64,000 nucleotides of DNA from Candidatus Liptonbacteria bacterium (GCA_016186635.1 JACPLI010000014.1:804-64803), one strand, 5' to 3'. Shown: positions 37,663 through 53,624, numbered from the stretch's first letter. A program made the numbers and translations. The notes: a model not told the origin generated them from the letters alone.

Positions 37663-38502
37663 ATGCCAGGAGCAAGATTAGGCCAGCACTTCCTCCGTGA
37701 CCAAGGCGCCCTCCGCGCGGTTGCGGCGGCGCTCGAGCTCGCGCCGGGCGACACCATTATCGAAATCGGCGCGGGGCATGGGGAGCTCACGGAAGAGTTG
37801 ATGAGTGAAAAGTGGAAAGTGAAGAGTGGAGAAAAAATACAAGTTCTTGCCATAGAAAAAGATTCGCGGCTTGCAAGAACGCTTCGAGAAAAATACTCGC
37901 GAAGCAGGAACATTGAAATAGTCGAGGGCGATGTGCGAACCGTATTGCCCTCCTTACTCACCACTTCTCACTCATCACTCGCCACTCGCCACTCGCCACT
38001 CGTTTACAAGCTCTGCGGCAACATCCCCTACTACCTCACTGGGTTTCTCTTCCGCATCGTGAGCGAACTTGAGCCGCTCCCCGCGCGGGCGGTGTTCACC
38101 ATTCAGAAAGAAGTTGCGGAGCGAATTGATGCAAAACCGCCGCACATGAATCAGCTTGCGGCGAGCGTGCAGTTCTGGGCGGAGCCGAAAATAATCCGCG
38201 TGGTTCCTCGGAGCGCGTTCTCACCGGCGCCAAAAGTGGACTCGGCGATTCTATTACTCAACCCTGTCATAAAAAAGGGAGAAAGAGGAGAAAAGGGGGA
38301 AAGGGGGAAATACTATGCGGCGGTCCATGCGCTCTTCTCCCAACCCCGCAAGACCATTCTGAACAACGTGGCGGCGGCGCTCCACGTGCCGAAAGAAGAA
38401 GCCGCACACACGCTTCATGAAGCGGGGATAGCTCCTCTCGCCCGCGCGCAGAACCTTTCTGTTGCAGATATCAAAAAGATATCCTCGCTTTTCCCGCTTT
38501 GA
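37663..38502 (+). CDS. rsmA: 16S rRNA (adenine1518/1519-N6)-dimethyltransferase
   Basis: GQHFLRD, SAM motif IIEIGAGHGELT, GNIPYY; contains three low-complexity in-frame inserts (37797-37835, 37952-38002, 38275-38315). Confidence 0.85.
   Translation: MPGARLGQHFLRDQGALRAVAAALELAPGDTIIEIGAGHGELTEELMSEKWKVKSGEKIQVLAIEKDSRLARTLREKYSRSRNIEIVEGDVRTVLPSLLTTSHSSLATRHSPLVYKLCGNIPYYLTGFLFRIVSELEPLPARAVFTIQKEVAERIDAKPPHMNQLAASVQFWAEPKIIRVVPRSAFSPAPKVDSAILLLNPVIKKGERGEKGERGKYYAAVHALFSQPRKTILNNVAAALHVPKEEAAHTLHEAGIAPLARAQNLSVADIKKISSLFPL
37952..38002. repeat. heptamer array (CTCAYCA/CTCGCCA)x7 in frame within rsmA
   Basis: ccttactcaccacttctcactcatcactcgccactcgccactcgccactcg encodes SLLTTSHSSLATRHSPL between conserved EGDV and KLCGNIPYY. 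Confidence 0.8.
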
Positions 38503-38550: not shown

Positions 38551-38576
38551 GTCATCCCCGCATTCGCGGGGATGAC
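38551..38576. repeat. hairpin gtcatccccgcattcgcggggatgac
   Basis: variant of GTCATTCCCGCG...CGCGGGAATC family. Confidence 0.5.
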
Positions 38577-38706
38577 GGAGGGGATAAGATTGCGTATTCA
38601 GGGGAAAGATTGCGGGGGTGTGCACAAAAACCACGGGCTTGAGATTGTGCGCAAGGTATAATGAGTATGGCGTATTCTATCCACCGCCGCTCCACACCTT
38701 TTCCAC

Positions 38707-41463
38707 ATGGACATCAAGAGACTTATCGCAGGATTCCTCGTCTTCGCCGGGCTCGCCGCGGCGCTCGCGCTCGCCATCCCCTCCCTCTTCTCGCCGCCCG
38801 CCGTTCCCGCCACGCAGAAAACAAAATCAGCGGTAGCTCAAAACGCGTTCCTTTCACAATCAGGAGGCGGCGCGCAGGAAGCATACATTACATCTTCCCG
38901 CTCCGCCGCAAGAACGCCAGGCGCGTCCGCAAATCTCACTCAAAAGCTCGGCACCCTGCTTGCACAGGAGGTCATCCGCACCAACGAAGCGGCGGGGACT
39001 TTACAGGGCCCGCCCTCAGGGCTCATTATCCCCGCACGGAAAACGCTTGAAGCGGCGATAGAGGAGAATATTTCGAGCGCCGCGCAGGCCGCCTCATTCC
39101 TCCCGCGGTTTGACGAACCCGTGCCGGACCGCGAACTCCGCGTTCTTCGAACGCCGCGCGCGGAGGACTTCGCGGCATACATGAACGCCGCCGCGCACAC
39201 GCTCGGGGAAACCGTGGGGAGCAGCGCGTTCGAGAAACTCCTCGAAGGGACGCCGAATATGGAAGCGGCATACACCGCCGCCGCGGTCTACGGGAACGCC
39301 GCGCAGGGACTCGCGCGCACCCCCGTGCCGGAACCCTTTGTGCCGCTTCATAAGAGTATCCTCGCGGCAGTCAAGAACCGGAAGGCGCTTGTTGACCTCG
39401 CGCTCGGAGACCCGTCCGACCCGCTCAAATCCCTTGCGGCGCTCCGGAGCGTCGAAAACCGCGTTGGCGAAATCCTTGACCGCGACGCCGACGCCATCGA
39501 AAAGGAAGCGGGGCTGCTCCAGCGCATCTCGTTCTCTGTCCCAGAAGACGGGCGGGGCGCCTTCGCGCGCCTCCTCGGAATCGAGCGCGCATTTGCGCAA
39601 GGCGCGGTGGTGCCGGTGAACGACGCGAAGCTCAACGCGACCACCGCCACGCTCACGAAGCAAAAGGTGAAAGACGATACGAGGAGCTGGTTCCAGCGGC
39701 TCAAAGACCTGTCGCTCAAGATGTTTCTCCAACAGCTCAAGAACCAGCTCATCGCCATGCTCGAGCAGCAAATCGTAAACTGGATTAACGGAGGCGGTTC
39801 GCCACAGTTTATCACCGACTGGAAGGGGTTCCTCGGAAACGCATTCAACAATGCGGTGGGGGCGGAAATCGAAAGAGTGCTTCCGGAGCTCTGCCAGCCG
39901 ATGTCGCCGCTCCTCCGCGTTACCTTCACCCTGCCGAGCGTGAACATCCCCGTCTACAGCGGCTGTACGCTGAACCAAATCGTGGATAACGTGAAGAACT
40001 TCTACCGCGACTTTCGGAATGGCGGGTGGATTCAGTACGGCGTCACCTTCGAGCCCACGGGAAACTATTTCGGCGCGCTCATCGAGGGGCACGACCGCGC
40101 GACGCGCGAAGCGCTCGCCGCCCTCGGCGCCGAGCGGGACAAGGCGATTGCCGCAGCAGGATTTTTGAGTTCGTCGGTATGCCCCTCCACCGGAAAACCG
40201 CCGGATGAGAAAAAGGGATGCCCGGGCGGCGAATCGCCGCTCGTAAAGACCCCCGGGAAACTCCTGGGAGACGCCGTTTCAAAAGCGGTGGTTGACTCGC
40301 CCTTCGAGCTTATCGTGAATGCGGACGATATCGCAGGACTGGTGCAGACCGTCGCGAATGCCGCGCTGAACCGGCTCGTGATGCTCGGCATTGACGCCGC
40401 CTCCGGAAGGTCCACCGGCAAAGGACTTACCTCCATTACCCCTGCCACAGCGCCCCCCGCAAACACCGCCGATTCCCTCTGCTACGGCACCACTGGCGCC
40501 GCGCGGACGGAGTGCCTGCGCAAGGCCCAAAGTGCTTCAAGCACGCAGGGGCAATCGCCGCTCGCAGACCAGACCTCCTGCAGTTCCCTCGCCGACCCCG
40601 CGCTCCGCGCGAACTGCGAGGCCACCCAGCGCGAAGCGGCGGAGACCGCCGCGTCCATCGGAGAAGGCGGCACGCTTCCCGGCTTCGAGAGCCAGCCGGC
40701 ACGGGTGGACCTTAGCGGCGCAACCGCGTCCCAAAGCCGCTCGCGGCATCCTACCTACGACGCCTCCGCCGCAATCGACGGGTCTCCGCAGACATATTCC
40801 GACACGTGGCCCGGTTCTCCCTCATGGTGGGAACTCACGCTCGCCGCACCCGAGTATCTCGAATTCGCCCACATCGTAACGCATGGAACTGTCCCGCTTA
40901 GAGGATTCGCGCGGGCGAGAATCCCCGTAGAACCCTTCCTCACGCTCTTTGAGCCGGGCGGCGCGGCATGGACAGTTGATTTGCCAAGCGGGGTATCGGA
41001 CATGCAAATATATCTCAACACCGAGCAGGCGCGGAATACCGGCACAGGAACTATTCTCCCCGCGTCGAGCATCCGCGTGAACAAACTCCGCATCGATGCG
41101 GAGCGCCTTGCGCTTGCCACTGTGGAACTCTTCCGCCGCATGGCGCCGGTGCTCGACCTCTCGAAGGTGCTCGCCACGCTCACGAAAGCGGAGGCAGTGA
41201 GGTTCTTTCCGCTCCCGTGGGCGACGGCGACCTACTACCCCACCTACAACAGCCCGACGCCCGCGCCCGCCTCCGCGATTTCGCTCGTGATTGCCGAGAA
41301 CAGCGCGCGGGGAAGTACGTTCCCGCCGGTTGAGGAGAACCTTACCCGCCCCGAACTCACTCGCTACCAGCTTGACTTGCCAGGGCAGTACCGCTTCACC
41401 TACACCGTGGACATCGGCGGCGTGAGCGCCTCGCGCACGCGCATTGTCACCGTTACCGAGTAA
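38707..41463 (+). CDS. large secreted/membrane-anchored hypothetical protein, first gene of T4SS-like cluster
   Basis: 918 aa; N-terminal TM/signal LIAGFLVFAGLAAALALAIPSLF; Cys-containing extracellular region; no known domain. Confidence 0.5.
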   Translation: MDIKRLIAGFLVFAGLAAALALAIPSLFSPPAVPATQKTKSAVAQNAFLSQSGGGAQEAYITSSRSAARTPGASANLTQKLGTLLAQEVIRTNEAAGTLQGPPSGLIIPARKTLEAAIEENISSAAQAASFLPRFDEPVPDRELRVLRTPRAEDFAAYMNAAAHTLGETVGSSAFEKLLEGTPNMEAAYTAAAVYGNAAQGLARTPVPEPFVPLHKSILAAVKNRKALVDLALGDPSDPLKSLAALRSVENRVGEILDRDADAIEKEAGLLQRISFSVPEDGRGAFARLLGIERAFAQGAVVPVNDAKLNATTATLTKQKVKDDTRSWFQRLKDLSLKMFLQQLKNQLIAMLEQQIVNWINGGGSPQFITDWKGFLGNAFNNAVGAEIERVLPELCQPMSPLLRVTFTLPSVNIPVYSGCTLNQIVDNVKNFYRDFRNGGWIQYGVTFEPTGNYFGALIEGHDRATREALAALGAERDKAIAAAGFLSSSVCPSTGKPPDEKKGCPGGESPLVKTPGKLLGDAVSKAVVDSPFELIVNADDIAGLVQTVANAALNRLVMLGIDAASGRSTGKGLTSITPATAPPANTADSLCYGTTGAARTECLRKAQSASSTQGQSPLADQTSCSSLADPALRANCEATQREAAETAASIGEGGTLPGFESQPARVDLSGATASQSRSRHPTYDASAAIDGSPQTYSDTWPGSPSWWELTLAAPEYLEFAHIVTHGTVPLRGFARARIPVEPFLTLFEPGGAAWTVDLPSGVSDMQIYLNTEQARNTGTGTILPASSIRVNKLRIDAERLALATVELFRRMAPVLDLSKVLATLTKAEAVRFFPLPWATATYYPTYNSPTPAPASAISLVIAENSARGSTFPPVEENLTRPELTRYQLDLPGQYRFTYTVDIGGVSASRTRIVTVTE

Positions 41464-41468
41464 ACCCT

Positions 41469-44114
41469 ATGAAAAGCCCCTTCGCTATAGTCCATCACTT
41501 CATCCGCCGCATTGGGGGAATCTTCCGCTCTGCTTCCCGGCGCACGCGGCTCACCGCCGTGCTCTGTGCTGGTTTCTTCGTACTCGCCGCAGTGCTCCTT
41601 CCTTCGCCAGCGCACGCAGGCGTAGCCGACTTCCTCGGCAGCCTTACCAACACCTTCATCGGCGGCATACTGGGAGGAACCGTCGGGTTTGTCGGATTCG
41701 TCATCTCCTACATCGTGAGCGCCGTGGTCGGCTTCTTCACCGCGCTCGTCGTCTTCGGCATCGGGGTGGTGCTCCAGCTCAACACGAACATCATAAACTC
41801 CGTCGCCGTGCAGGAGGGATTCAAGGTGACACTCTCCATCGCGAACCTCGGCTTCGTCCTCGGCATCATCATTATTGCGATTGCCACCATTCTGCGGTAC
41901 GAGCACTACGGCATGAAGCGCCTCCTCATCAAGCTCATCGCGGCGGCGCTCCTCGTGAACTTCAGCTTGGTCATCGGCGGCGCCATCGTGAACTTCTCCG
42001 ACCGGATGTCCGGCGTGTTCCTCTCCGCCTTCCCGGGCGGCGGAGGCGGCGCCACCGCTTTCGCAGACGCATTCGCCGGAGCATTCGGTCCCCAGCGCCC
42101 CTTCCTCAACCAAACCATCAAGGATGCGGACACCATCTCAAGCGCCGAGGATTTGGAAAAAGTCGCGGGCGCCGGCTCCGCAGGACAAAGTTTGGGCACG
42201 CTCTTCGTGCCGCTCATCAACCTCATCTTCGTCGCCGCCATCCTTATTGTGATGTTCATCACAATAGCCACGTTCTTCTTCATGCTCCTTGTCCGCTATG
42301 TATATCTCGGCATGCTCCTCATCCTCATGCCTTTCGCGTGGCTCCTGTGGGTCTTCCCCTTGACCGAAGGCATCTGGAAGAAGTGGTGGGATAAATTCCT
42401 CAAGTGGACGTTCTTCGCGCCGATTTCGCTCTTCTTTATGTGGCTCGTGATTATCACGGGGCAGGTAATGTCCTCGGGGAATGCGGCGGACCCGTCCCAG
42501 GGGCTCCAAGGGCTCGCGTACATCGCGCCGCCCGACAGCTACGCGCGTGGCTTGAAGAGCTTCGTGGGGAGCGCCGCGAACCAGGTGATGGGCACCTTCC
42601 TCCAGGCGGCGGTTCTCGTGGGGCTTGCCATCGGCGGCCTCATCGCCGCGGAGAAATTCTCCATCACGGGGTCCCACGCGGCGATGGGCGCGGTAAAGGG
42701 CATCGGAAAAGCGGCACAGGGGTATGTGGGGAAACGCGCGAGACAGGCGGGCGGAGCGATTCTCCAAAAAGCGGGGGTGCAAAATGCCGCGACCGCACTC
42801 CAGCAAAAAGGAGCTGCTGCGCTTCGGCAAAGTAACATTAATCTCGGCGCAGGAAGCAAGAGCAGAATCCTTAGGGCCGTAGCAAAGCCGTTTAATTTTG
42901 CCGCGAACGCGGCGGCAAAAGCTCTCGGTTACACCGTCGGGTATGCTCCCGGGGCAGATTATGTCGCGGCGCGTACGGGTCGTGTGATTCAGGCAGGCGT
43001 CGCCGGAGGGCGGAGCGGCTTGATGGGCGGCGCGGAAGCGGATGTGAAAGATGCAACCAAAGGACTCACCGAAGAACAGCAGGCGAACCTCGCAAGCACC
43101 ATGACCGCGCCGCAACGGGTGGCGCTTGTTAAAAAGGCGACAAAGGAAGGATGGCTCGACAAAATTGACAGCAAGTACTACGGCCCCGAAGAAAAGGAGC
43201 GGACATTCAAAGCGCTCGGCCAGGAAAAGGCGTATGACGATGCATTTAAGGCGAGCCAAGGGGCAGGAGAAAAGAAACCATACGCGGAAGAACAAGATAA
43301 GGCGAGAGGAGTGGCAAAACAAGAAGCGGAAATGTGGGCAGAAAGACAGGGTCTCCCCCACAAGACCGATATTTCAGAAGCGGGGAGGATAGCGTATGAG
43401 ACCGCAAAAACACATGGGGATAGCGATAAAGACGCGGAGGAAAGGCGAAATAAAGCAATAGCAGTCGCAAGATACAGAAAGGGTCAGGTTGCGTATGAAG
43501 AAGCAAAAGCGCACGGAGATAGTGATGAAGATGCAGAAAAAGCTAGGGGAAAGGCGCTCGAAAAAGCCCAAGAGCCCTCCGAATACGAAAAGTTTGTAAA
43601 AGAAAAAGTAAAGAAAGCGGAAGAAGAAACAATGGCTGATGAAGTAGACCCGGAGACAGGGAAGAAAACCGGAAGAAAAGTAAACGCACAGGAGAAAATC
43701 AAAGAAATTACAGGCAAAGCTACGGAAGACTTAAAGAAAGGAGACAAAGTGCAGTATAAAGAAATCTTCGGCGACAAGGCGGCGTTTGGATTGAGCAAAG
43801 AAAGCATCAAAGCGATGGGCGAGGTATTTGCCCAAAAAGTGGCTTACTCGAACCAACAACTCATCCCGAATATCATCTCTAAGATGAGTGCGAAGCAATT
43901 TGATGGATTTAAGAAAATGTATACAAAAATCCTCAAAGACGGCATCGCCTCCACGAGCGGCGACCAAAAGAAGTATTTAGAAGAAGGTCTCGACAGATTC
44001 ACCAAGAAAATCCTTGCACACCACATGACAGGCGCCGCGCACGAAGGAGGAGGAGGTGAAGAAGAACACGCCGCGCCCGCGCCCCCTCCTCCTAGCGGCG
44101 GAGGCACAACTTAA
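41469..44114 (+). CDS. VirB6/TrbL-like polytopic membrane protein with long K/E-rich C-terminal extension
   Basis: 881 aa; N-terminal ~420 aa with >=6 TM helices in the arrangement typical of VirB6/TrbL, then hydrophilic charged tail; immediately upstream of PrgI-like and VirB4-like genes. Confidence 0.5.
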   Translation: MKSPFAIVHHFIRRIGGIFRSASRRTRLTAVLCAGFFVLAAVLLPSPAHAGVADFLGSLTNTFIGGILGGTVGFVGFVISYIVSAVVGFFTALVVFGIGVVLQLNTNIINSVAVQEGFKVTLSIANLGFVLGIIIIAIATILRYEHYGMKRLLIKLIAAALLVNFSLVIGGAIVNFSDRMSGVFLSAFPGGGGGATAFADAFAGAFGPQRPFLNQTIKDADTISSAEDLEKVAGAGSAGQSLGTLFVPLINLIFVAAILIVMFITIATFFFMLLVRYVYLGMLLILMPFAWLLWVFPLTEGIWKKWWDKFLKWTFFAPISLFFMWLVIITGQVMSSGNAADPSQGLQGLAYIAPPDSYARGLKSFVGSAANQVMGTFLQAAVLVGLAIGGLIAAEKFSITGSHAAMGAVKGIGKAAQGYVGKRARQAGGAILQKAGVQNAATALQQKGAAALRQSNINLGAGSKSRILRAVAKPFNFAANAAAKALGYTVGYAPGADYVAARTGRVIQAGVAGGRSGLMGGAEADVKDATKGLTEEQQANLASTMTAPQRVALVKKATKEGWLDKIDSKYYGPEEKERTFKALGQEKAYDDAFKASQGAGEKKPYAEEQDKARGVAKQEAEMWAERQGLPHKTDISEAGRIAYETAKTHGDSDKDAEERRNKAIAVARYRKGQVAYEEAKAHGDSDEDAEKARGKALEKAQEPSEYEKFVKEKVKKAEEETMADEVDPETGKKTGRKVNAQEKIKEITGKATEDLKKGDKVQYKEIFGDKAAFGLSKESIKAMGEVFAQKVAYSNQQLIPNIISKMSAKQFDGFKKMYTKILKDGIASTSGDQKKYLEEGLDRFTKKILAHHMTGAAHEGGGGEEEHAAPAPPPPSGGGTT

Positions 44115-44122
44115 ACACGCTC

Positions 44123-45544
44123 ATGAACAACCCAACCGTAATACCCGAAGAAAAAATCTTCCAGCGCTGGGATATGCTCCCCGAGGGACTCCGCGAGGCG
44201 CTTGTCTCTGAAAAATACGGCGATATTCTCTGGAAAACCTGCGCGGCGGAGCATCTCTCCGAGGAAAAAACGGGCGAGGTCGCCCGCATCGCTTCGTGGG
44301 TGTTTCTGGGATTCCTCCACCCCGAGGACATCGCGCGCGAGGTGCAGCTTTCGACCGGCATCCACGCCGAGGTTGCAAACGCGATTGCCGCGGCGCTCCA
44401 CGCGAAGATTTTCGCGCCGCTCCGCGAGACGCTCGAGTCCTCCTACGCCCCTCCGGGAACCACGCCCCGCTACGGCGAGGCGCCTGCGGGGCCCGTCATG
44501 CTTGAGGATATTCGCTCCATGGAAGACCGCGAGGGCGCGCCTGCTTCGCCGGAGCTCCCGCGAGGCGCGCAGGGCGCTTCTCTCTCTCACGGGATGGAAG
44601 CAACGCTCGAGAAGCTCCGCCCCTCCGCCGCAGAAGAGCCATTCTTCAAAGAAACGCCCGTAGCGCTTGAGGCGCTTAAGGAACAAGGAACAAGGAACAA
44701 GGAACAAGGAGAAGCCTTTGAAGTACCACCAGCATTCGAGATGCCGCCTCCCGAAAGAATGAGTGATGCGGGAAGAGTGATAAGTGATGAAGCGACCCGT
44801 CCCTCACCCCTCACCACTCAAAACTCATTCTCGCCACTCGCCACTCAACCCTCGCCACTTGAAACTTCCCCCTTCATCCTCCACGAAGAAGCCCCCGCGC
44901 CTTCGCTCCCGAACGTCGGCGACTTTTCGCTCGACATCAGGCCGGAAGAGTTCGGCCCCTCGGAGCAGGAACTGCAGAAAGCCCCGCAGGCGGACATCGA
45001 GATAGGGGGAGCAACAGAAGGAATAAGGAATAAGGAACAAGGAACAAGCGAGGAAGAAAAGGAATCGAGAATCGTTCACTACGGAGACTTGCGCACGCCG
45101 CTCGAAAGCGTGAGTGGCGAGGGAAAAGTGATGAGTGATGAGGCAACTCTCCTCTCACCCCTCACCCCTCAACACTCATCACTAGATGCAACTCCCGTTC
45201 CAAGCCCGACGTTTGCAGCGTTCAACCTCTCCGACCTTGCAGGGCTGGATGCTCCGCCTCCTCCACCTCCCGCCGCAACCGCGCCCGAGCCGGACGTGCC
45301 CCCGCCTCCGCCCGCCACTCAACCCTCGCCACTCGAAACTTCTCCAAAAAAGCAAGGGTTCTTTGCGCGGCTTTTCGGAAGAAGAGGAAGGGGGACTCTA
45401 GAACCTTCGGATGCCCAAGGTTCGACCTTGGAAGCAACCCCGGAACCCGACCTGCCTCCGCCTCCGCCCGATGAGCCACCCGTGCCGCCTCTACCCCCTG
45501 CTACCGGCGCCGACACGATAAACTTAGATTCTTTCAAGTCCTGA
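44123..45544 (+). CDS. hypothetical protein with folded N-domain and Pro-rich low-complexity tail
   Basis: 473 aa; tail contains AAGGAAC and GTGATGA-type heptamer arrays translated as EQGTRNKEQG, SDEATRPSPLTTQ etc. Confidence 0.45.
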   Translation: MNNPTVIPEEKIFQRWDMLPEGLREALVSEKYGDILWKTCAAEHLSEEKTGEVARIASWVFLGFLHPEDIAREVQLSTGIHAEVANAIAAALHAKIFAPLRETLESSYAPPGTTPRYGEAPAGPVMLEDIRSMEDREGAPASPELPRGAQGASLSHGMEATLEKLRPSAAEEPFFKETPVALEALKEQGTRNKEQGEAFEVPPAFEMPPPERMSDAGRVISDEATRPSPLTTQNSFSPLATQPSPLETSPFILHEEAPAPSLPNVGDFSLDIRPEEFGPSEQELQKAPQADIEIGGATEGIRNKEQGTSEEEKESRIVHYGDLRTPLESVSGEGKVMSDEATLLSPLTPQHSSLDATPVPSPTFAAFNLSDLAGLDAPPPPPPAATAPEPDVPPPPPATQPSPLETSPKKQGFFARLFGRRGRGTLEPSDAQGSTLEATPEPDLPPPPPDEPPVPPLPPATGADTINLDSFKS

Positions 45545-45556
45545 CTCGGAAAACCT

Positions 45557-45602
45557 TAATTCGCGTTATTTGCCCCAATTCGCATTATTCGCGATTACTC
45601 CT
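45557..45602. repeat. palindromic AATAAYGCRAAT-family element, copy 4
   Basis: taattcgcgttatttgccccaattcgcattattcgcgattactcc ending 1 nt before ATG 45603. Confidence 0.65.
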
Positions 45603-46109
45603 ATGCAATTCCAAGTTCCCCAATTTATCGAGACGGAAGACAAGATTGTGGGGCCTTTCACGCTCAAGCAGTTTATCGCGGTCGGCGCCGCAGTAGGCGT
45701 CTCGCTTGTCCTGTACCTCGTCGTCGTGCCGTGGCTCTGGCTCGTGCTCTCTATTCCCCTCGTCGGCGGCGGGATTGCCTTCGCCTTCGTGAGGGTAGGG
45801 GGGCGCGCGCTCCCTTCGGTCGCGCTCGCGGCGCTCCGCTATCTCTGGAAACCGCAAACGTACGTGTGGCAGCCGGAAGCGCAAGGAACAAGGGACAAGG
45901 AACAAGGAACGAAAACGGAAGAAAAGACGGGCGGGCTTTCGCTTGAGGAAGTGCTCTCGGGACTCTCCCTGCGGCGGACATGGCAGAAGCTCCAAACCGG
46001 CGCGGAGAAGCTCTCGCCGGGGCTCTTCCTCGCTCAGCGCGACCGCTACTCCATCTACCGGAAGCGGAGCGGGGAGAGGAGCGCCGCGAGGAGGATAGAT
46101 TACCGCTAG
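45603..46109 (+). CDS. PrgI/VirB3-like small membrane protein
   Basis: start at ATG 45603; two TM helices FIAVGAAVGVSLVLYLVVVPWLWLVLSIPLVGGGIAFAFV; position directly upstream of VirB4-like ATPase as in Gram-positive-type T4SS. Confidence 0.5.
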   Translation: MQFQVPQFIETEDKIVGPFTLKQFIAVGAAVGVSLVLYLVVVPWLWLVLSIPLVGGGIAFAFVRVGGRALPSVALAALRYLWKPQTYVWQPEAQGTRDKEQGTKTEEKTGGLSLEEVLSGLSLRRTWQKLQTGAEKLSPGLFLAQRDRYSIYRKRSGERSAARRIDYR

Positions 46110-46112
46110 AGG

Positions 46113-46168
46113 ACAAGTGGTGAGTGATGAGTGGTGAGTGGGGAGTGGTTAAGTGGCGAGTGATGAGG
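46113..46168. repeat. heptamer array (GTGGTGA/GTGATGA/GTGGGGA...)x8
   Basis: ggacaagtggtgagtgatgagtggtgagtggggagtggttaagtggcgagtgatgagg. Confidence 0.8.
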
Positions 46169-46582
46169 GAATACAATGCAATGCAAATCAAATCGTATAA
46201 AGAACTTACTGTTTGGAAAAAATCGGTTGTTCTTGTGGAAGAAGTTTACTGTTGCACCGCAAAACTTCCGAAGGAGGAGTTATATGGTCTCGTTATGCAA
46301 GCGCGCCGCGCAGTAGTTTCAATCCCGTCAAGCATCGCCGAAGGTTCGAGAAGGAAAAACGGCATGGAATATCTGCAGTACATAAGGATTGCGGATGGAT
46401 CATCGGCAGAACTTGAGACACAACTCATCATAATAAAACGCCTCTACCCTCACGTAAATGTCGCGAGAGCAGAACAGCTGCTTGATGAAGTGCAACGAAT
46501 GCTGCACGCAATGCGGCGGACTCTCGAATCTAAAATCAGGCTTACCCGAACACCTCCAAGCGAGTACAATGATAAAGAATAG
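46163..46582 (+). CDS. four-helix-bundle protein (23S rRNA intervening-sequence protein family)
   Basis: KSYKELTVWKKSVVLVEEVY...LPKEELYGLVMQARRAVVSIPSSIAEGSRR...ADGSSAELETQL matches PF05635-type proteins; lower-GC islet; start 46163 or 46181. Confidence 0.65.
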   Translation: MREYNAMQIKSYKELTVWKKSVVLVEEVYCCTAKLPKEELYGLVMQARRAVVSIPSSIAEGSRRKNGMEYLQYIRIADGSSAELETQLIIIKRLYPHVNVARAEQLLDEVQRMLHAMRRTLESKIRLTRTPPSEYNDKE

Positions 46583-46652
46583 CCACCACTTCCCTCACCC
46601 CTCACCACTTATCGCTCATCACTTATCACTCGCCACTTATCACTCAAAACTC
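46582..46652. repeat. heptamer array (CCTCACC/ACTTATC/ACTCGCC...)x10 abutting virB4-like start codon
   Basis: ccaccacttccctcacccctcaccacttatcgctcatcacttatcactcgccacttatcactcaaaactc then ATG 46653. Confidence 0.8.
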
Positions 46653-49079
46653 ATGCCCAAAGAATTCGCCAACGCCCAGGACCTCGTCGCGGTCAAGGAA
46701 ATCCGAGACGGGACGCTCATCTTGAAGGACGGCGGCCTCCGCCAGATACTTATGGTGAGCGGCGTGAACTTCGCGCTCCGCTCGGAGACGGAGCAAGGCA
46801 TCATCACCGCCAGCTACCAGAACTTTTTGAACACGCTCGATTTCCCCCTGCAGCTCATCATCCACTCCCGGAAAATCAACATTGATACATATCTCGAGAA
46901 GCTCGCCGCGTACGAGCAGAAAGAGCCCTCCCCCCTCCTCCGCAACCAAAACGCCGAGTACCGCGAGTTCATCAAGGGGTTCGTGGACAAAAACGCGATT
47001 ATGGAGAAAACATTCTTCGTGGTCGTGCCGTGGACGACCGTCTCACTCCCCACCACGAGGAGTCTTATGCGATTCATCCCGTTTCTCGGGAGAAGCAAGG
47101 GGGCGGAAGCGGCAGAGGCGAAAGAGAAGGAAGAGTCCTTCGAGGAGTCGCTGGAACAGCTCCAGCAGCGCGTCTCCCAGGTCGCCGAGGGGCTTGCCGC
47201 CGTGGGGCTTGAAGCGGTCCCTCTGGGCGACCGCGAGCTTGCGGAGATGCTCTACAACTTCTACAACCCCGAATCCGTCGAGCGCGAAAACCTTGCGCTT
47301 CCCGCCGACGAGAAAGGCGGGGCGAATGCAACGGCCCAAACCCAAGGCGCGGAGAAACCCGTGAAGAAGGGCGGAATTGGCGATGTCTCAAAAATCATTG
47401 CGCCGGCAGGCGCGGAGGTGACGCCGAATTTCGTCAAAATCGGCAGCAAGCTCGCAAAAACGTTTTTCGCGCTCTCCTACCCGAGGTACCTTGCAACCGG
47501 CTGGTTTGAGCCCATCGTGAACCTCCCCAGCCTTCTCGACGTCTCCATCTTCGTGAATCCCATGAACACGGGGGATGCCCTCAAAAACCTCCGCAAGAAA
47601 GCCGCCCAGCTCGAATCGCAAATCGCGGATACGGAAGAGAAAGGGCTCGTGCGCGACCCCCTGCTCGAAACCGCGCTCCGCGACGTGGAATCCCTTCGGG
47701 ACACGCTCCAGCAATCGGAGGAAAAGCTCTTCCACGCCGCCCTCTACATCACGATTTACGCGGACGCGCCGGACCAGCTTGCGCGGCTTGAGGGGCAAAT
47801 CACTTCGCTCATGGAAGCGAAGCTTGTTTACATCAAACCCGCCCTCTTCGAGCAGCTTGAGGGGCTCCTCTCGGTTTTTCCCTTCGGAGGCGACCGCCTC
47901 AATATCGGGACGCCGATGAACTCGAGCCCCATCTCCTCTTTTTTCCCATTCGTCTCCGAAGACCTCACCTCGAACGAGGGCATCATGTACGGCATCAACC
48001 GCCACAACAATAGCTTGGTCATATTCGACCGGTTTTCTCTCGAGAACGCAAATCAGGTCGTCTTTGCAAAATCCGGCTCCGGAAAATCCTACTCCACGAA
48101 ACTCGAAATCATCCGTTCGCTCATGGTGGGCGCCGAAGTCATCGTGATTGACCCCGAGAACGAATACCAGCGCCTCGCGGAGGCTTTGGGCGGGAGCTTC
48201 TTCAGCATTTCGCTCTCGTCCGAAGAGCACATCAACCCGTTCGACATCCCCATCATTCCGGAAGGGGAGTCTCCTTCGGACATCCTCCGGTCGCACGTCG
48301 TGAACCTCGCGAGCTTGGTGAAGCTCATGCTCGGGAAAATCACGCCCGAGGAAGACGCGCTCCTCGACCGCGCGATTACCGAAACCTACGCCTCGCGCGA
48401 AATCGTGGCGGGGGAAGATTTTTCCGGCAAGGAAGCCCCGCTCCTTGAGGACCTCGAAACCGTGCTCCGCAACCTTGAGGGCGGGCGCGCGATGGCGGAA
48501 CGGCTCTATAAGTACACGAAGGGGTCCTTCGCGGGATTCGTAAACCAGCACACGAATATCGACATCGGCAACCGCTTCATCGTCTTCTCCATCCGCGACC
48601 TTGAGGAGGAGCTCCGCCCGATTGCGATGTTCGTCATCCTGAACTTCATCTGGAACCTCATCCGCGCGAAGTTGAAACGCCGGATTCTCATGATTGACGA
48701 AGCATGGATTATGATGAAAAACGAAGACTCCGCCACGTTCCTCTTTGGGCTCGTGAAGCGCGCCCGGAAGTACTACCTTGGCGTTTCCACCATCACGCAG
48801 GACGTCGAGGACTTCCTGAGGTCTCCCTACGGCAGGCCCATCATCACGAATTCCTCGGTACAGCTCCTTTTGAAACAAGCGCCTGCGACGATTGATATCG
48901 TGGCAAAAGCGTTTGACCTCACGGAAGCCGAAAAATCGCTTCTCTTGGGCGCGGAGGTCGGCACGGGGCTCTTCTTCGCGGGGAAAAAGCACGTCGCCAT
49001 CCAGATTGTCGCCTCGTATTTCGAGGACCAGATTGTAACGACAAACCCCGCACAGCTCCTTGAGGAAAAATCCCGCTAG
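46653..49079 (+). CDS. VirB4/TrbE/PrgJ-family T4SS ATPase
   Basis: start at ATG 46653 (MPKEFANAQDLVAVKEIRDGTLILKDGG = typical Gram-positive-type VirB4 N-terminus); Walker A FAKSGSGKSYS; Walker B LMIDEAW; C-terminal VirB4 domain. Confidence 0.85.
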   Translation: MPKEFANAQDLVAVKEIRDGTLILKDGGLRQILMVSGVNFALRSETEQGIITASYQNFLNTLDFPLQLIIHSRKINIDTYLEKLAAYEQKEPSPLLRNQNAEYREFIKGFVDKNAIMEKTFFVVVPWTTVSLPTTRSLMRFIPFLGRSKGAEAAEAKEKEESFEESLEQLQQRVSQVAEGLAAVGLEAVPLGDRELAEMLYNFYNPESVERENLALPADEKGGANATAQTQGAEKPVKKGGIGDVSKIIAPAGAEVTPNFVKIGSKLAKTFFALSYPRYLATGWFEPIVNLPSLLDVSIFVNPMNTGDALKNLRKKAAQLESQIADTEEKGLVRDPLLETALRDVESLRDTLQQSEEKLFHAALYITIYADAPDQLARLEGQITSLMEAKLVYIKPALFEQLEGLLSVFPFGGDRLNIGTPMNSSPISSFFPFVSEDLTSNEGIMYGINRHNNSLVIFDRFSLENANQVVFAKSGSGKSYSTKLEIIRSLMVGAEVIVIDPENEYQRLAEALGGSFFSISLSSEEHINPFDIPIIPEGESPSDILRSHVVNLASLVKLMLGKITPEEDALLDRAITETYASREIVAGEDFSGKEAPLLEDLETVLRNLEGGRAMAERLYKYTKGSFAGFVNQHTNIDIGNRFIVFSIRDLEEELRPIAMFVILNFIWNLIRAKLKRRILMIDEAWIMMKNEDSATFLFGLVKRARKYYLGVSTITQDVEDFLRSPYGRPIITNSSVQLLLKQAPATIDIVAKAFDLTEAEKSLLLGAEVGTGLFFAGKKHVAIQIVASYFEDQIVTTNPAQLLEEKSR

Positions 49080-49085
49080 AGCCCT

Positions 49086-49153
49086 GTCATTCCCGCGTAT
49101 GCGGGAATCCAGGAAAGTGAGATAAGGTTCTGGGTTCCCGCTTCCGCGGGAAC
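49086..49153. repeat. ~70-bp double-hairpin element, left copy (GTCATTCCCGCGtatGCGGGAATC ... GGTTCCCGCTTCCGCGGGAAC)
   Basis: direct repeat of 49903-49968 (about 85% identical); the pair brackets gene 49189-49854. Confidence 0.7.
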
Positions 49154-49188
49154 AACAGAAAGAATACATTCGACCCCTGCACACTACC

Positions 49189-49854
49189 ATGGAACCCGAG
49201 CCAAAAATCTCCGTCGTTGAGGCGATATGGATAGGAACCGTATTCGCGCTCATAGACATTGCGGAAGTCGCCATTGTATTCTTCGGGCTCGACGATTTCT
49301 GGATTCTCGACGCGCTCGCGTCAACGATATTTGTGTATCTCGTCCTCAAGACAATCCCGCCGTTCCGCCAGCTCATCACATGGATTGGAGAACTCTTCCC
49401 GTATGTGGGCGCGCTCCCGCTCCTCACCGCAGGATGGCTCTGGACCACGTGGGCAGACTGGCATCCCGAGGGACTCGGCGCGAAGACGCTCGCCGTGGCG
49501 GAAACGGCGGCGTCCGCGGCAAAGGGAGGAGGGGGAGGAAAAGGCGCCGCGGAAGGCGGGGGAGGGGGCACAGCGGGCGCGCCCGCGCAGGCGCCGCAGG
49601 CACGCGCCGCCGAACAAGCCCCAGCCGGCGCGGGAACAACCGCAGAATCCGCTCCGGCATCCGCCGCGCCGGGCGGAGCGCCGGGAGCGCAACCGGTTCC
49701 CGATGAGGCGCTTGGGGTTCAAAAAGAGCCGATGGAAAAGGTACGGGAGCTCATGGAAAAACCGCTCCCGCCGGAAGAACCCGTCTCCTCAACCGAACCG
49801 CCAGCGCCCCCTCCTCCGAAACTTGAGGATGTGCGCCGGAGGGAAATGCTCTAG
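49189..49854 (+). CDS. hypothetical membrane protein with Gly/Ala/Pro-rich tail
   Basis: 221 aa; 3 TM helices; KGGGGGKGAAEGGGGGTAG low complexity; flanked by direct repeats. Confidence 0.45.
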   Translation: MEPEPKISVVEAIWIGTVFALIDIAEVAIVFFGLDDFWILDALASTIFVYLVLKTIPPFRQLITWIGELFPYVGALPLLTAGWLWTTWADWHPEGLGAKTLAVAETAASAAKGGGGGKGAAEGGGGGTAGAPAQAPQARAAEQAPAGAGTTAESAPASAAPGGAPGAQPVPDEALGVQKEPMEKVRELMEKPLPPEEPVSSTEPPAPPPPKLEDVRRREML

Positions 49855-49867
49855 AATGAAGGAGGAT

Positions 49868-50641
49868 ATGAATACCCGCGAATTACAACCTCCTCTTCCT
49901 TGTCATTCCCGCGAAAGCGGGAATCTAGGGGCACTAAGGGAGATCCTGGGTTCCCGCTTCTGCGGGAACGACAGAACGGCTCGCTTTATCGTCTCAGTTG
50001 CATTGCTTATTGTAATCGCAATGCTTCTGCCGCACGCGTACGCGCAAACCGAGCCGCAGGTCATCATCAGCTGGCAGGCGCACACCTATACCCCTCCCGG
50101 CTACGCCGGAAAGGCGCTCTCGACTGGCGGCTCAAAAGTGAGCGCGTCGCTTGATGTGCTCCACGGAGGGAAGCTTGCCGACCTCTCCGGAGAGACCTTC
50201 TACTGGTACCTCAACAACCGCCTCATTTCGCGCGGCAGGGGGCTCACGAGCGTTTCGCTCCGCGCGCCGGAGGAACTGCGCGGCTCATTTTCGCTCCGCG
50301 TCGAAGCCCTTTCTTACCGCGGCGGCGCCCTGCTCCGCGCCGTGAACATCCCCATCGTCCGCCCCGAGGCCGTGCTTGCGGCGCCTTTCCCCGACGCAAA
50401 AGTTTCCTCGCCGCTCTCCCTCCGCGGCATACCCTTTTTCTTCAACGTCACGGACCCCTTGGAGCTCGTCACGCGGTGGACGGTGAACGGCGCGCCCGCG
50501 TCGCAGACAGGCAACCCCACGGAACTCACTGCAACCATCCAAGGCGCCGCCGGCAGCGCGCTCTCCATAGCGCTCTCGTTCCTCAATCCCGCGTTTGATT
50601 TCGAGGCCGCGCAGGCGTCGGCAACATTCACGCTCAAATGA
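49868..50641 (+). CDS. hypothetical secreted protein
   Basis: ATG 49868 (or 49856) after aaggagga; N-terminal 40 aa are translated hairpin repeat, then signal-like FIVSVALLIVIAMLLPHAYA-QTEP; true start uncertain. Confidence 0.4.
   Translation: MNTRELQPPLPCHSRESGNLGALREILGSRFCGNDRTARFIVSVALLIVIAMLLPHAYAQTEPQVIISWQAHTYTPPGYAGKALSTGGSKVSASLDVLHGGKLADLSGETFYWYLNNRLISRGRGLTSVSLRAPEELRGSFSLRVEALSYRGGALLRAVNIPIVRPEAVLAAPFPDAKVSSPLSLRGIPFFFNVTDPLELVTRWTVNGAPASQTGNPTELTATIQGAAGSALSIALSFLNPAFDFEAAQASATFTLK
49903..49968. repeat. ~70-bp double-hairpin element, right copy
   Basis: gtcattcccgcgaaagcgggaatc...ggttcccgcttctgcgggaac. Confidence 0.7.
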
Positions 50642-51747
50642 AGTCCCCGCTCTCCGCACTCGCGCTCTTCCTCCTTGCCTCCGCCAGCTGGCGGACCGCC
50701 GCCTTTGCCTCGACCATCAACACGAACATCCCCGGCACCGCCCCCACCACAAGTCCCGCAGGGTTCGTCGCAAACTTCTACCAGTTCGCCTTGATGCTGG
50801 GCGGCATTCTCGCCTTCGGCGCCATCGTCTACGGCGCGATTCTCTACGCCGTCTCCGCGGCGAGCCCCGAACTGCGGAGCAGGGGGAAGGACCACATCAT
50901 ACAAGCGCTCATGGGGCTCGCGCTTCTCATGGGCGCGGTCCTCATCATCAACTACGTGAACCCCGACATCATCACGCATCCGCCGGGCACGGTAACGTTT
51001 ACGCTCAAAGATGTGAATTTGGAAGGTTTGAAGGCAAAAACCGGAACCCCGCCGGCGTACAACCCCTCGTCGATAGTGGACTACAATAAGCTGAATGAAG
51101 AAGCGAAAGAAGCAAGAAGGGAGGCCCAGAGGCTGGAAACGAGGGCGGCGGACCTCCGCAGAGAAGCATTACTCCTTGAGGAAGATGCGTTGTATGACCC
51201 GTCAGTTAAAACGAGGATAGACCAGCTGAATAAAGAGGCGGGTGACATAGAGCGCCAGCTCATCGGAAAAACGGCGCTGGCGTGGGCAAAGCGTCACGAC
51301 CTGGATTCCCGCGTCGCGCTCGAGAACAACGACCCTGCAGAAGCGGCGCGCCTCAGAGACGCGCGCGACAGGAGATTGGGAACTGCGGCGGTAAATCTGA
51401 ACGGCGCGGGAGACGCCGCAGGGGCTGCCGGCCTCCTCGTTGATAAGTTTAAGTACGGCGTCCAGTTCGACGCCGATGCCGCCGCGCGGGACGTCGCGGA
51501 ACGCATGAAGGTAACCGGCCAAGGAGCCGTAATCGCAAAGTCAACGGCGGAGTCCCAAGCAAAATCCGTGATGGAAAAAATAGTGACGAACGCAAAAACA
51601 AAGGCGGCCGAGGTGGAGAAAATCTCCCCGGGAAGCGGACAAAAAGTGCGTGATGAGGCAAAAATTGCGATAGATAAAATCAAAACTATCTGCGCGCAAA
51701 ACTCATTAAGAAGTTGCGCCGGCTTTACGTACGACCCTTCAAAATGA
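50638..51747 (+). CDS. pilin-like protein (VirB2/TrbC-like topology) with coiled-coil C-terminal extension
   Basis: signal peptide LALFLLASASWRTAAFA then two hydrophobic helices FYQFALMLGGILAFGAIVYGAILYAV / IIQALMGLALLMGAVLIINYV, typical of T4SS pilins; C-terminal ~220 aa charged/helical. Confidence 0.45.
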   Translation: MKSPLSALALFLLASASWRTAAFASTINTNIPGTAPTTSPAGFVANFYQFALMLGGILAFGAIVYGAILYAVSAASPELRSRGKDHIIQALMGLALLMGAVLIINYVNPDIITHPPGTVTFTLKDVNLEGLKAKTGTPPAYNPSSIVDYNKLNEEAKEARREAQRLETRAADLRREALLLEEDALYDPSVKTRIDQLNKEAGDIERQLIGKTALAWAKRHDLDSRVALENNDPAEAARLRDARDRRLGTAAVNLNGAGDAAGAAGLLVDKFKYGVQFDADAAARDVAERMKVTGQGAVIAKSTAESQAKSVMEKIVTNAKTKAAEVEKISPGSGQKVRDEAKIAIDKIKTICAQNSLRSCAGFTYDPSK

Positions 51748-52988
51748 AACGCCTCCTCTATCTCCTCATCATCCTCGCAGTCGCGGGCGCCGTCGTCCTC
51801 GCCGGGTTTTTCCTGCGCTACCGCAATGAGCCGGTTGCGCCTTCTCCGGCGGAAGAAATGGCGGGAGAAGAGCTCCCCGCGCCAGAGCTTGCCCCGACTG
51901 AAACGTCGGGGGGCGCCACCGCCGAGATGCCTCCCGCGCCCGCCTCTCCTTCCGAGCCCGTCCTCCTCGGCGACGGACTCCGCATCTTGTATCAAAACCC
52001 TGTTTTTGCACTTGCGCCCGCTCCAAACGGCGGCGTGCTGGTGATGGGCATCGACGGGGCGGTTGCCGCAGTGCGGGACACCGCCGCCACCTTGAGCCCC
52101 ACGCCGATTGCAGAGCTCCAAAAAGCGCTTTTTTCCGCGGGCGGCGTAAAGGCGCTTGCGCTCTTCGGCGACCGCACTGCGCCGCAAGCGGGCGTCTTCG
52201 ATGTCGCCTCGAAAACGTGGCAGCCGTTCCCATTCTCCATCATTGACGCGGCGTGGTCGCCGAACGACTCCCGCGCCGCATATCTCGCGCGGCAGAACAG
52301 CGGCGCTGTCGTGCTGGGAGTGCTCGATCTCGCGAACGCGAAGGCAAAACCCCAGGAACTTCTTCGCGCGCGCTTCGCGGACATCACGCTTGCATGGCCC
52401 TTGCCCGACCTTATCTTTCTCCAAGAGCGCCCCAGCGCGGCGGTTCCGGCGCGCGCGTGGATTTTTGACATGAAAAAGAAAATGCTTGCGCCGTTCGCGG
52501 AAGAACAGCGCGGACTCGCAGTGCGGTGGCCTGCCCCGGCCGGAGCGTCGGGGCCCCCGGGAGAATGGCTCGCCTTCGCCGCGGGAGATGCGGGACGGGG
52601 CGGGCGGCTGTACCTCGTCTCACCGCAGGGGACCATCCGCGAGGAGCTTACCTTCCTCACGCTTCCGCAAAAGTGCGCCTCCTTCGGCGGCGGCGCGGCG
52701 CCAAAGGCAGCCTCCGCGGCGCCCTCATCCGCTCCCGCCACTCTTATCTGCGCCGTCCCGCGCGACGCAGATACGCTCAATGTGAGCGCGCTCCCGGACG
52801 CGTACTGGAAACGGGCGCTTTTCACTGAAGATGTCTTCTTAATGATAAACCTTGCGACGGGCGCGACCCGAACTCTCTTTGACGATGCCGCTCGCCCGCT
52901 CGACGCCGACATGCTCGCCGTCTCGGGCGACACGCTCTATTTCATAAACCGCTACGACCAGAAACTGTACTCGCTCCAGATTAAATAG
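51744..52988 (+). CDS. hypothetical membrane-anchored/secreted protein, last gene of T4SS-like cluster
   Basis: start ATG 51744; TM LLYLLIILAVAGAVVLAGFFL; Ala/Pro-rich; no known domain. Confidence 0.45.
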   Translation: MKRLLYLLIILAVAGAVVLAGFFLRYRNEPVAPSPAEEMAGEELPAPELAPTETSGGATAEMPPAPASPSEPVLLGDGLRILYQNPVFALAPAPNGGVLVMGIDGAVAAVRDTAATLSPTPIAELQKALFSAGGVKALALFGDRTAPQAGVFDVASKTWQPFPFSIIDAAWSPNDSRAAYLARQNSGAVVLGVLDLANAKAKPQELLRARFADITLAWPLPDLIFLQERPSAAVPARAWIFDMKKKMLAPFAEEQRGLAVRWPAPAGASGPPGEWLAFAAGDAGRGGRLYLVSPQGTIREELTFLTLPQKCASFGGGAAPKAASAAPSSAPATLICAVPRDADTLNVSALPDAYWKRALFTEDVFLMINLATGATRTLFDDAARPLDADMLAVSGDTLYFINRYDQKLYSLQIK

Positions 52989-53038
52989 GGAGTAATCGCG
53001 AATAATGCGAATCTGGACTTCAATAACGCGAATTCATT
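52988..53038. repeat. palindromic AATAAYGCRAAT-family element, copy 5
   Basis: gggagtaatcgcgaataatgcgaatctggacttcaataacgcgaattcatt immediately after stop of 51744-52988. Confidence 0.65.
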
Positions 53039-53195: not shown

Positions 53196-53624
53196 CTATC
53201 CGACCGGCTTCACCACCACGTAACGCTCCTTCCCTTCTCCCACGCTCTCCGTCGTCACCTCGGGGTGCACCGCAAGGGCGGTGTGGACAATTCTGCGCTC
53301 ATAGGAGTTCATCACTGGCAGCGGAACCTCGGCTCTCGTCATGTGCACTTTTTTCGCCGCCGCCTTGGCGAGTTCAACGATTAAATTTTCCCGCTCCTGC
53401 CGGTAGTTGTTTACGTCAAAAATCACCGGGGGGATGCCGTGCTTCCGCCCGACGAGCTGCACCACGTGGTTCAAACTGGCAACCAGCGCAGGGAGCGCTT
53501 CCTTCACCAGCGCTTGATTGTCGTAAATGAAAACGGTGCCGCGCCGCTCCTCGCGCACTTCAACATGAAAGTCACGGAATCCCATCCGCTCAAAAAGCTC
53601 TTGTACGAAATTTCGAAAGTCCAT
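53196..53624 (-). CDS. jag: Jag/SpoIIIJ-associated KH + R3H RNA-binding protein
   Basis: start ATG 53624; R3H motif YERRIVHTAL; conserved position downstream of yidC. Confidence 0.75.
   Translation of the reverse strand: MDFRNFVQELFERMGFRDFHVEVREERRGTVFIYDNQALVKEALPALVASLNHVVQLVGRKHGIPPVIFDVNNYRQERENLIVELAKAAAKKVHMTRAEVPLPVMNSYERRIVHTALAVHPEVTTESVGEGKERYVVVKPVG

Follow-up and report, generated by a model that had tools for sequence, protein, structure and literature searches.

A probable Patescibacteria-type type IV secretion system beside the replication origin of a Candidatus Liptonbacteria genome

A large part of bacterial diversity falls to the Patescibacteria, whose members live attached to other microbes. 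A 64,000-nucleotide stretch of Candidatus Liptonbacteria DNA (GCA_016186635.1, JACPLI010000014.1:804-64803; "the window" below means this whole stretch) has ten plus-strand open reading frames (ORFs) at 38707-52988, some of which resemble parts of a type IV secretion system (T4SS). What kind of machine would a cluster encode that adjoins the replication origin while the window shows neither a relaxase nor a coupling protein, and has it been seen before? The cluster is very probably a chromosomal, origin-proximal T4SS of the Patescibacteria type, and this kind of system is already known, since it was described by Quinonero-Coronel et al. 2025 and a homologous cluster was found to be essential by Wang et al. 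2023. All ten ORFs are present where a preliminary description, made from the sequence alone, had placed them, and they are called g1 to g10 here in their order, the fifth being a four-helix-bundle gene that forms part of an islet (Table 1).

Core components and chromosomal site

g6 encodes a predicted VirB4-family ATPase with intact nucleotide-binding motifs (Walker A AKSGSGKS, Walker B ILMIDE). It matches the Pfam families P-loop_TraG (3e-28), AAA_10, DUF87 and TraC_F_IV, and its best curated family is the MPF-FATA-type conju_CD1110 of NCBIfam (4e-117, 392 bits against a cutoff of 325). There are at least 7997 homologues at E<=1e-10, and all of the named ones belong to Patescibacteria (Parcubacteria, Colwell-, Harrison-, Wolfe-, Jorgensen- and Liptonbacteria). 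The named best matches are 42-93% identical to g6 in what is a similarity search and not a tree, and are consistent with a placement of g6 in the Patescibacteria VirB4 clade that is nested in MPF-FATA.

The proteins of the window were compared by tblastn with 87 loci fetched around VirB4 homologues. Matches lie in the same order and orientation for prgI in 81 of these loci, g2 in 58, g8 in 46, g9 in 43, g10 in 37, g1 in 36 and g3 in 35, with g1 as the first and g10 as the last gene of the cluster. In the relatives ksgA is followed by a large exported protein, a polytopic TrbL-like protein, a protein of ~400 aa, PrgI, VirB4, proteins of ~235 and ~225 aa, the T4SS pilin and a protein of ~410 aa, after which come jag-yidC-rnpA-rpmH on the opposite strand and then dnaA and dnaN. 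This order from ksgA to dnaN recurs in Liptonbacteria, Wolfebacteria, Harrisonbacteria, Jorgensenbacteria and others (dozens of Paceibacteria genomes), and the sequence divergence of the locus tracks the hosts. Because they are recovered across the 87 loci, all genes except the four-helix-bundle gene can be taken as conserved members of the cluster.

The virB4 gene is a single ORF in the window (46653-49079). When this was set against the corresponding regions of loci L001 (9171-11752) and L004 (9309-11737) and of 77 other loci, virB4 was found as two ORFs in 79 of 85 related loci and fused in six. The split form has a TrsD/TraC-like N-domain of ~200-235 aa, which is a separate TraC-like ORF (PF26593), and an ATPase of ~580 aa. 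The two ORFs are often joined by coupling-type overlaps (ATGA) or short gaps, and several of the junctions contain heptamer-type repeats or a gene for a 23S rRNA intervening sequence protein (IVP; see below). Residues 14-61 of g6 have a weak match to TrsD (E=6.7e-5), and the TrsD-like feature of the Patescibacteria-clade T4SS thus appears to be present as the fused N-domain of g6. The split virB4 of the relatives agrees with the abundance of TrsD homologues given by Quinonero-Coronel et al. 2025 (PMC12102498).

g4 matches PrgI (PF12666; 6e-8, 33.6 bits against a cutoff of 27), and in the 81 loci with prgI this gene is immediately 5' of virB4.

g2 has eight hydrophobic helices and a charged C-terminal tail of ~450 aa. 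Its membrane domain has 169 homologues, and among the 120 of them that were listed about one third have a precomputed match to TrbL_3 (PF19590) and two have one to TrbL (PF04610). The thresholds of TrbL, TrbL_3 and TrbL_4 are passed or nearly reached by homologues with E-values of 1e-45 or lower: for TrbL, with a gathering score of 25.9, P0205 scores 26.6 and P0148 lies exactly on the threshold, and TrbL_4 is matched at 5e-6 to 4e-4 by P0153 and by the proteins from L007 and L005. The L007 orthologue is 36% identical to g2 (E=3e-60). An AlphaFold2 model of g2 built from 86 sequences is confident (predicted local distance difference test, pLDDT, 81.8), and when it was compared by Foldseek with 350,542 chains the top five were TrwI/VirB6 chains (probability 0.80-0.99), with DotA also among the best structural matches in the PDB. 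The VirB6-family consensus has no match in Pfam, and the profile of the g2 family gave nothing for the membrane domain and only noise for the charged tail when searched against the PDB. Transitive homology and the modelled fold, rather than a direct profile match, support g2 as a VirB6-like protein. The PrgI/VirB3-like and VirB6-like genes adjoin virB4 as they do in the Patescibacteria-clade T4SS.

g9 matches the T4SS_pilin family (PF18895; 4.3e-7, 30.4 bits against a cutoff of 26.6) and, weakly, the Mbov_0395 pilin-like family of NCBIfam. It has a signal peptide (site AFA-S) and two hydrophobic helices, and its orthologues in L004, L005 and L007 likewise carry PF18895. A VirB2-like pilin near virB4 in a monoderm is a feature of the Patescibacteria clade, and g9 is predicted to be such a pilin. 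An unusual helical and charged extension of ~260 aa follows at the C-terminus. The pilin domain (residues 24-112, ~90 aa) is kept in 43 loci while the total length varies from 97 to 538 aa, suggesting that the extension is a variable, surface-exposed add-on. The preliminary description had proposed these VirB4-, PrgI/VirB3-, VirB6- and pilin-like proteins; curated profile thresholds bear out the first two and the pilin, and the TrbL profiles of its homologues together with the fold speak for the VirB6-like protein.

The cluster is chromosomal and adjoins the replication origin, between ksgA and jag-yidC-rnpA-rpmH-dnaA-dnaN. When the large ORFs of the entire 64 kb were scanned with Pfam, only housekeeping genes were found besides the cluster, including gyrA, an S1 protein gene, clpP, nusA, an H+-pyrophosphatase gene, tyrS, ftsH, glyA, folD, dcd, uvrD and a gene for a Mg-chelatase-like (ComM-type) ATPase. 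As had been described, the same scans find no relaxase, VirD4-type coupling protein, VirB11 or integrase, and Pfam gives no VirB7, VirB9 or VirB10 homologue in the cluster. A chromosomal site near dnaA, dnaN and ksgA with no relaxase or coupling protein nearby is a feature of Paceibacteria.

The cluster might instead be conjugative, either as an intact element or as what is left of a decayed one. An integrative and conjugative element (ICE) of MPF-FATA type, with its relaxase, coupling protein and integrase outside the window or lost, would suit a VirB4 that falls in the conjugation-type CD1110 family and the PrgI-, TrbL- and pilin-like parts typical of conjugation systems. The same chromosomal slot between ksgA and jag-yidC-dnaA is, however, used in dozens of species, and the window has neither a MOB relaxase with VirD4/TcpA among its large ORFs nor an integrase/excision module; the site is conserved rather than variable, and nothing mobile is seen in 64 kb. 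There is no break in GC content (0.55-0.63 across the 2-kb windows of the cluster, 0.48-0.62 elsewhere in the window), and no integrase or tRNA lies at the cluster borders, where attachment repeats were not specifically searched for. Relaxases are also rare in Patescibacteria (103 of 3,035 genomes, and rarely near virB4, according to PMC12102498). The ICE reading was rejected on the conserved synteny and the lack of mobility genes in the window, and we consider it highly improbable; the preliminary description had likewise held that this is not a classical conjugative element.

The Patescibacteria-clade T4SS, as described in PMC12102498, fits the cluster closely. There VirB4 is found in 2,417 of 3,035 Patescibacteria genomes, most of them in one clade nested in monoderm MPF-FATA, with genes for TrsD-like, PrgI/VirB3, VirB6 and VirB2-like pilin proteins near virB4, and the locus of Paceibacteria lies near dnaA, dnaN, ksgA, rnpA and rpmH. 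The window shares the VirB4 relatives and MPF-FATA affinity, the TrsD-like domain, PrgI, the VirB6-like protein and the pilin, as well as the lack of a nearby relaxase or coupling protein and the site next to ksgA, rnpA, rpmH, dnaA and dnaN. We see no difference in kind; the window has the fused TrsD-VirB4 and the IVP islet, and g1, g3, g7, g8 and the TolB-like g10 are not among the components named in the consulted sections of that paper. The resemblance to the pared-down T4SS of ultra-small bacteria that had been suggested is upheld, since the best VirB4 relatives are all Patescibacteria and g1 is identical to a Liptonbacteria protein. The suggestion that the components may be novel does not stand for the system, which PMC12102498 already describes across those 2,417 genomes.

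Table 1. Features of the cluster, its neighbourhood and the related loci (window positions unless a locus is named)
Feature	Position	Strand	Description
g1	38707-41463	+	918 aa, exported or N-terminally anchored; Cys-rich core
g2	41469-44114	+	881 aa, putative extended VirB6/TrbL-like polytopic membrane protein, long charged C-terminal tail
g3	44123-45544	+	473 aa, no transmembrane helix; conserved N-domain, Pro-rich disordered tail
g4	45603-46109	+	PrgI/VirB3-like, two transmembrane helices; PF12666
Islet	46109-46651	+	23S rRNA IVP/four-helix-bundle gene (46163-46582) and flanking inverted repeats
g6	46653-49079	+	Predicted VirB4-type ATPase, 808 aa, TrsD/TraC-like N-domain fused to ATPase
g7	49189-49854	+	221 aa, small membrane protein, Ala/Gly/Pro-rich disordered tail
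g8	49868-50641	+	257 aa, single-pass membrane protein, beta-rich external domain
g9	50638-51747	+	Predicted VirB2-like T4SS pilin, signal peptide, two hydrophobic helices; PF18895
g10	51744-52988	+	414 aa, membrane-anchored TolB-like (PD40) beta-propeller
ksgA	37663-38502	+	rRNA adenine dimethylase; PF00398, 3.7e-40; conserved upstream boundary, position kept in relatives
Replication-origin region	53196-57849		jag to dnaN
jag/R3H	53196-53693	-	Pfam; conserved downstream boundary
yidC	53650-54387	-	Pfam and translation
rnpA	54417-54755	-	Pfam and translation
rpmH	54765-54899	-	Pfam and translation
dnaA	55243-56604	+	Pfam and translation
dnaN	56740-57849	+	Pfam and translation; followed by a class A penicillin-binding protein gene
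LysM-Peptidase_M23 gene	33453-34481	-	4 kb upstream of the cluster
PilB/GspE ATPase gene	61886-63580		PF00437, MshEN
LAGLIDADG homing-endonuclease ORF	30547-31071		3.6e-8
tRNA-Ile pair	23145-23217; 23258-23329	-	TAT anticodon
ATTCGCATTATTCGCGATTACTCCT motif	45563-45605; 26315-26343(-); 2016-2055(-); 33429-33456; 52989-53012(-)		Five copies, ~25-40 nt
REP-like palindromes	~38555-38580; 49085-49110; 49140-49165; 49895-49975		GC-rich
Islet inverted arms	~46109-46156; ~46594-46651		34-48 nt, 7-nt units
Empty hairpin copies	44745-44828; 45096-45179		84 nt each, in g3
GGAACAA heptamer runs	44678-44710; 45018-45048; 45882-45910		First two in g3, third in PrgI
IVP genes of related loci	L008 1642-2067; L042 8663-9022, 9602-9925; L048 8987-9358, 10669-11049		
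IVP genes of related loci	L068 10680-11066; L077 8681-9061; L065 9107-9511; L061 5348-5740		
IVP genes of related loci	L039 8927-9253; L036 9440-9895; L022 9494-9961(-); L019 217-594; L034 10092-10454(-)		

Accessory proteins

The N-terminal part of g1 is helical, with one hydrophobic helix; the Cys-rich core (about residues 300-610) is highly conserved and has the motifs QQIVNWINGGGSPQF and NGGW. g1 is identical (100%) to HYW65_01835 of NCBI, a protein from a Candidatus Liptonbacteria metagenome-assembled genome. A phmmer search of 1.84 billion representatives gave 2652 homologues of the core at E<=1e-3 and 1290 at E<=1e-10, and the core family has no match in Pfam or the PDB. The C-terminal part is variable: the window protein has a weak discoidin/F5_F8 type C match, and members of the family differ in carrying discoidin, fn3, PKD or Ig domains. 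Since g1 lies just upstream of the VirB6-like gene, and VirB5-VirB6 and IcmX-DotA are paired in solved machines, a VirB5/IcmX-like role is attractive. By analogy with these, g1 could sit on the VirB6-like channel and carry host-binding domains. A direct VirB5-like assignment was rejected as too weak, with sub-threshold DUF4141 matches in only two of 77 family members. One Liptonbacteria relative (L028) apparently has two g1-family paralogues, at 7-1707 and 3516-5408, upstream of its T4SS cluster.

g3 has a conserved N-domain (about residues 1-110) without a match in Pfam or the PDB, and its Pro-rich disordered tail contains translated repeat DNA. g7 has about three helices within residues 1-100, followed by the disordered tail, as judged from hydrophobicity, and no family match in Pfam or NCBIfam. 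By tblastn its N-terminal part has a counterpart in 11 loci, in the same place within the cluster, and L004-L007 have genes of comparable size there.

g8 has a transmembrane helix at residues 40-58 and no match to a known family or in the PDB. Its first 36 residues (PCHSRESGNL...FCGNDR) are translated from a palindrome that resembles repetitive extragenic palindromic (REP) elements, and a good Shine-Dalgarno sequence precedes the ATG at 49868. Other such GC-rich palindromes, of the GTCATTCCCGCG...CGCGGGAATGAC type, are intergenic, before g1 and after virB4.

g10 has an N-terminal transmembrane helix. In the PDB, a profile made from 33 orthologues finds TolB beta-propellers (3.5e-10), and several members match PD40 and other beta-propeller families.

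Conserved synteny shows five lineage-specific partners that always accompany the core parts: the exported g1 with its putatively lectin-like C-terminus, the predicted cytoplasmic protein g3, and g7, g8 and g10. The view that most components have no assignable domain is only partly right, since g10 is TolB-like and all genes other than the IVP gene fall into syntenic families.

The four-helix-bundle gene and other features of the window

The four-helix-bundle gene matches 23S_rRNA_IVP (PF05635, 5e-29; TIGR02436, 1.7e-28), which together with the flanking inverted repeats confirms an islet gene as proposed. The inverted arms consist of 7-nt units of the GTGAGTG type (z=8.3). Apart from the window, only its closest relatives (L001-3, L008) have the islet at the junction of prgI and virB4, and L004-L007 lack it. 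We read the gene as an IVP islet with flanking repeats that was inserted at this junction, and not as a T4SS component. A reading as bAvd of a diversity-generating retroelement was rejected, as the Avd models reach only 0.0015-0.005 against 5e-29 for IVP, and Pfam and NCBIfam scans found no reverse transcriptase beside it.

An iterated hidden Markov model search of the 1.49 Mb of T4SS loci gave 19 ORF hits, corresponding to 15-16 IVP genes. All but one are within ~1.5 kb of prgI, in both orientations: seven before prgI, six between prgI and virB4 (counting L001-L003 once; one is inverted and frameshifted) and two that separate the N- and C-parts of virB4 (L048, L068). The remaining gene is found between g10 and jag. 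Inverted repeats of 7-nt periodic units flank 13 of the 16 genes, and the unit sequence differs by genome. Within these loci, the positions suggest an insertion hotspot or an operon association near prgI/virB4. We found no literature on IVP genes clustering around prgI/virB4, and no mention of the g1-family and IVP-islet readings in the searchable literature. The joint reading, that IVP islets are insertion elements which have a strong hotspot at the g3|prgI|trsD|virB4 junctions of Paceibacteria T4SS operons and leave "empty" heptamer-periodic hairpins behind, and that the g1 core is a large, unannotated, T4SS-linked exported family which could match VirB5/IcmX in function, is put forward tentatively, as somewhat short of an even chance.

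Related repeats are also translated within cluster genes. Two "empty hairpin" copies are read in frame within g3, and the disordered tails of g3 and PrgI include the translation of GGAACAA heptamer runs, with RNKEQG and SDEAT..SPLTTQ as the repeat-derived peptides.

The genes of the cluster are closely packed: two gaps measure 5 and 8 nt, two pairs of genes overlap by 4 nt, and the spacing is wider only around the four-helix-bundle gene and 3' of virB4. A separate motif, ATTCGCATTATTCGCGATTACTCCT with an upstream GCGTTATT, abuts the start codon of prgI and of clpP and once lies just 3' of the g10 stop codon; it may be a promoter or 5' element or a dispersed repeat. The LysM-Peptidase_M23 gene upstream of the cluster is a conserved neighbour in many relatives, where it usually precedes uvrD and ksgA, and its product is a candidate cell-wall hydrolase for the VirB1-like role that the cluster itself lacks. 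Farther away, the 2-kb stretch that holds the LAGLIDADG ORF has the lowest GC content of the window (0.476), and Rfam gives no rRNA near the ORF. The two neighbouring tRNA-Ile genes score 38 bits and 66 bits with the tRNA model.

Possible function and known relatives

The extended VirB6-like g2, the VirB3/PrgI-like g4 and the monoderm MPF-FATA VirB4 g6 would form a translocon in the cytoplasmic membrane. VirB4 would supply the energy to assemble the channel and a tube or filament made of pilin, and g1, g8 and g10 may form an extracellular or wall-spanning part that touches the host cell. Such a machine could move macromolecules across the interface of epibiont and host, either effectors out or host material in. 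The absence of a relaxase and a coupling protein from the window suggests transport rather than conjugation.

The homologous cluster of Southlakia epibionticum (SEML1_0006-0019) is essential for epibiotic growth by transposon sequencing, and was noted to have pilins and no coupling protein or relaxase (Wang et al. 2023, PMC10633639). It has VirB4, PrgI, VirB6 and pilins in common with the window. S. epibionticum belongs to another class (Saccharimonadia) and has a six-pilin array with adjacent peptidase and lysozyme genes, whereas the window has one long-extension pilin and no hydrolase within the cluster. A T4SS and pilus as an epibiont-host conduit is a speculation of a 2025 review (PMC12857230), and a 2026 preprint describes tubular structures where a parasite meets its host, which may be T4SS pili.

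The Gram-positive MPF-FATA systems (Prg/Pcf of pCF10, CD1110 of the C. difficile CTn) have the same VirB4 family, PrgI, a PrgH/VirB6-type protein and a monoderm envelope. The window cluster differs in its lack of a relaxase, VirD4/PcfC and a recognisable VirB8-like (PrgL/PrgD) or VirB1-like (PrgK) protein, in having a VirB2-like pilin, which is absent there, and in being chromosomal and vertically inherited. TrwI/VirB6 of R388 and DotA of the Legionella Dot/Icm system, which are among the best structural matches of the g2 membrane domain, are only 8-16% identical to g2, which has in addition the 450-aa charged C-terminal tail. As for a VirB5/IcmX partner, none was recognised in the cluster; g1, encoded immediately upstream, is only a candidate.

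The exported proteins and the pilin could instead build a filament whose adhesion keeps the epibiont on its host, with nothing being translocated. The long surface extension of the VirB2-like pilin, the discoidin-like C-terminus of g1 with the fn3, PKD and Ig add-ons of its homologues, and the surface beta-propeller of g10 would all suit an attachment organelle, and VirB4 is also required for pilus biogenesis in known systems. Against this, the extended VirB6-like channel protein and the catalytically intact VirB4 motifs are conserved, adhesion alone would not require an inner-membrane translocon, and type IV pili already serve adhesion in Patescibacteria (PMC12857230). We regard a machine that is mainly an attachment organelle as unlikely.

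DNA uptake had also been proposed, partly from the PilB/GspE ATPase 9 kb away. A competence-type T4SS like Helicobacter ComB or the Sulfolobales Ced system, possibly acting with PilB, would import DNA of the host or the environment as a source of nucleotides, which suits the lack of nucleotide synthesis in Patescibacteria (PMC10633639), the lack of a relaxase or coupling protein in the window and a weak similarity of VirB4 to CedB. This similarity reaches only 36 bits against a cutoff of 700 (CedD, 18 against 600), and the component set of Ced or ComB is not present. In S. epibionticum transformation needs type IV pili and ComEC, and the cells can do without comEC but not without the T4SS (PMC12857230), so the essential role there would not be ComEC-dependent DNA uptake. 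The Saccharibacteria genetics (PMC10633639; PMC12857230) thus disfavour the proposal, to which we give a low probability.

PilB itself lies between ruvC and yebC upstream (minus strand) and ruvB downstream, without adjacent pilus or competence genes, and the window has no PilC or prepilin of a type IV pilus or type II secretion system. It is indeed an orphan locally, as had been noted. Its assignment to the T4SS was rejected on these neighbours, as proximity alone links the two, and PilB would belong to a separate system, if to a system at all.

Several points weigh against the cluster being a Patescibacteria-type T4SS that transports macromolecules. g2 has no direct match in Pfam or NCBIfam, and the Foldseek E-values of its model (0.05-0.3) are weak alone, though the order of the matches is clear. 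Nothing in the cluster was recognised as a VirB8-like or VirB1-like protein, and a canonical VirB2 pilus may not accommodate the 260-aa extension of the pilin. A coupling protein could be encoded elsewhere in the genome, since the VirD4 homologues of Patescibacteria mostly lie far from virB4 (PMC12102498). The structure prediction that had been proposed for the 918-aa g1 (residues 60-620, seven homologues only) gave a pLDDT of 42, which made it unusable and excluded it from the fold search, and the roles suggested for g1, g3, g7 and g8 come from topology and synteny only. The experimental basis lies outside this organism and the class Paceibacteria, so that any cargo and direction of transport suggested above are tentative.

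A Patescibacteria-type T4SS that is already known remains by far the best account of the cluster. The locus is a clean Paceibacteria example with a full list of conserved partners and is not new in kind; the new details are the TolB-like g10, the Cys-rich g1 family, the fused virB4 and the IVP islet near prgI/virB4. The recurrent IVP islets may affect RNA processing of the operon and how virB4 came to be split. For structural and genetic work the locus provides a partner list, made up of the TolB-like propeller, the Cys-rich exported family, the extended VirB6 and the long-extension pilin, for the T4SS of Patescibacteria, which is the first shown to be essential for the growth of its owner.

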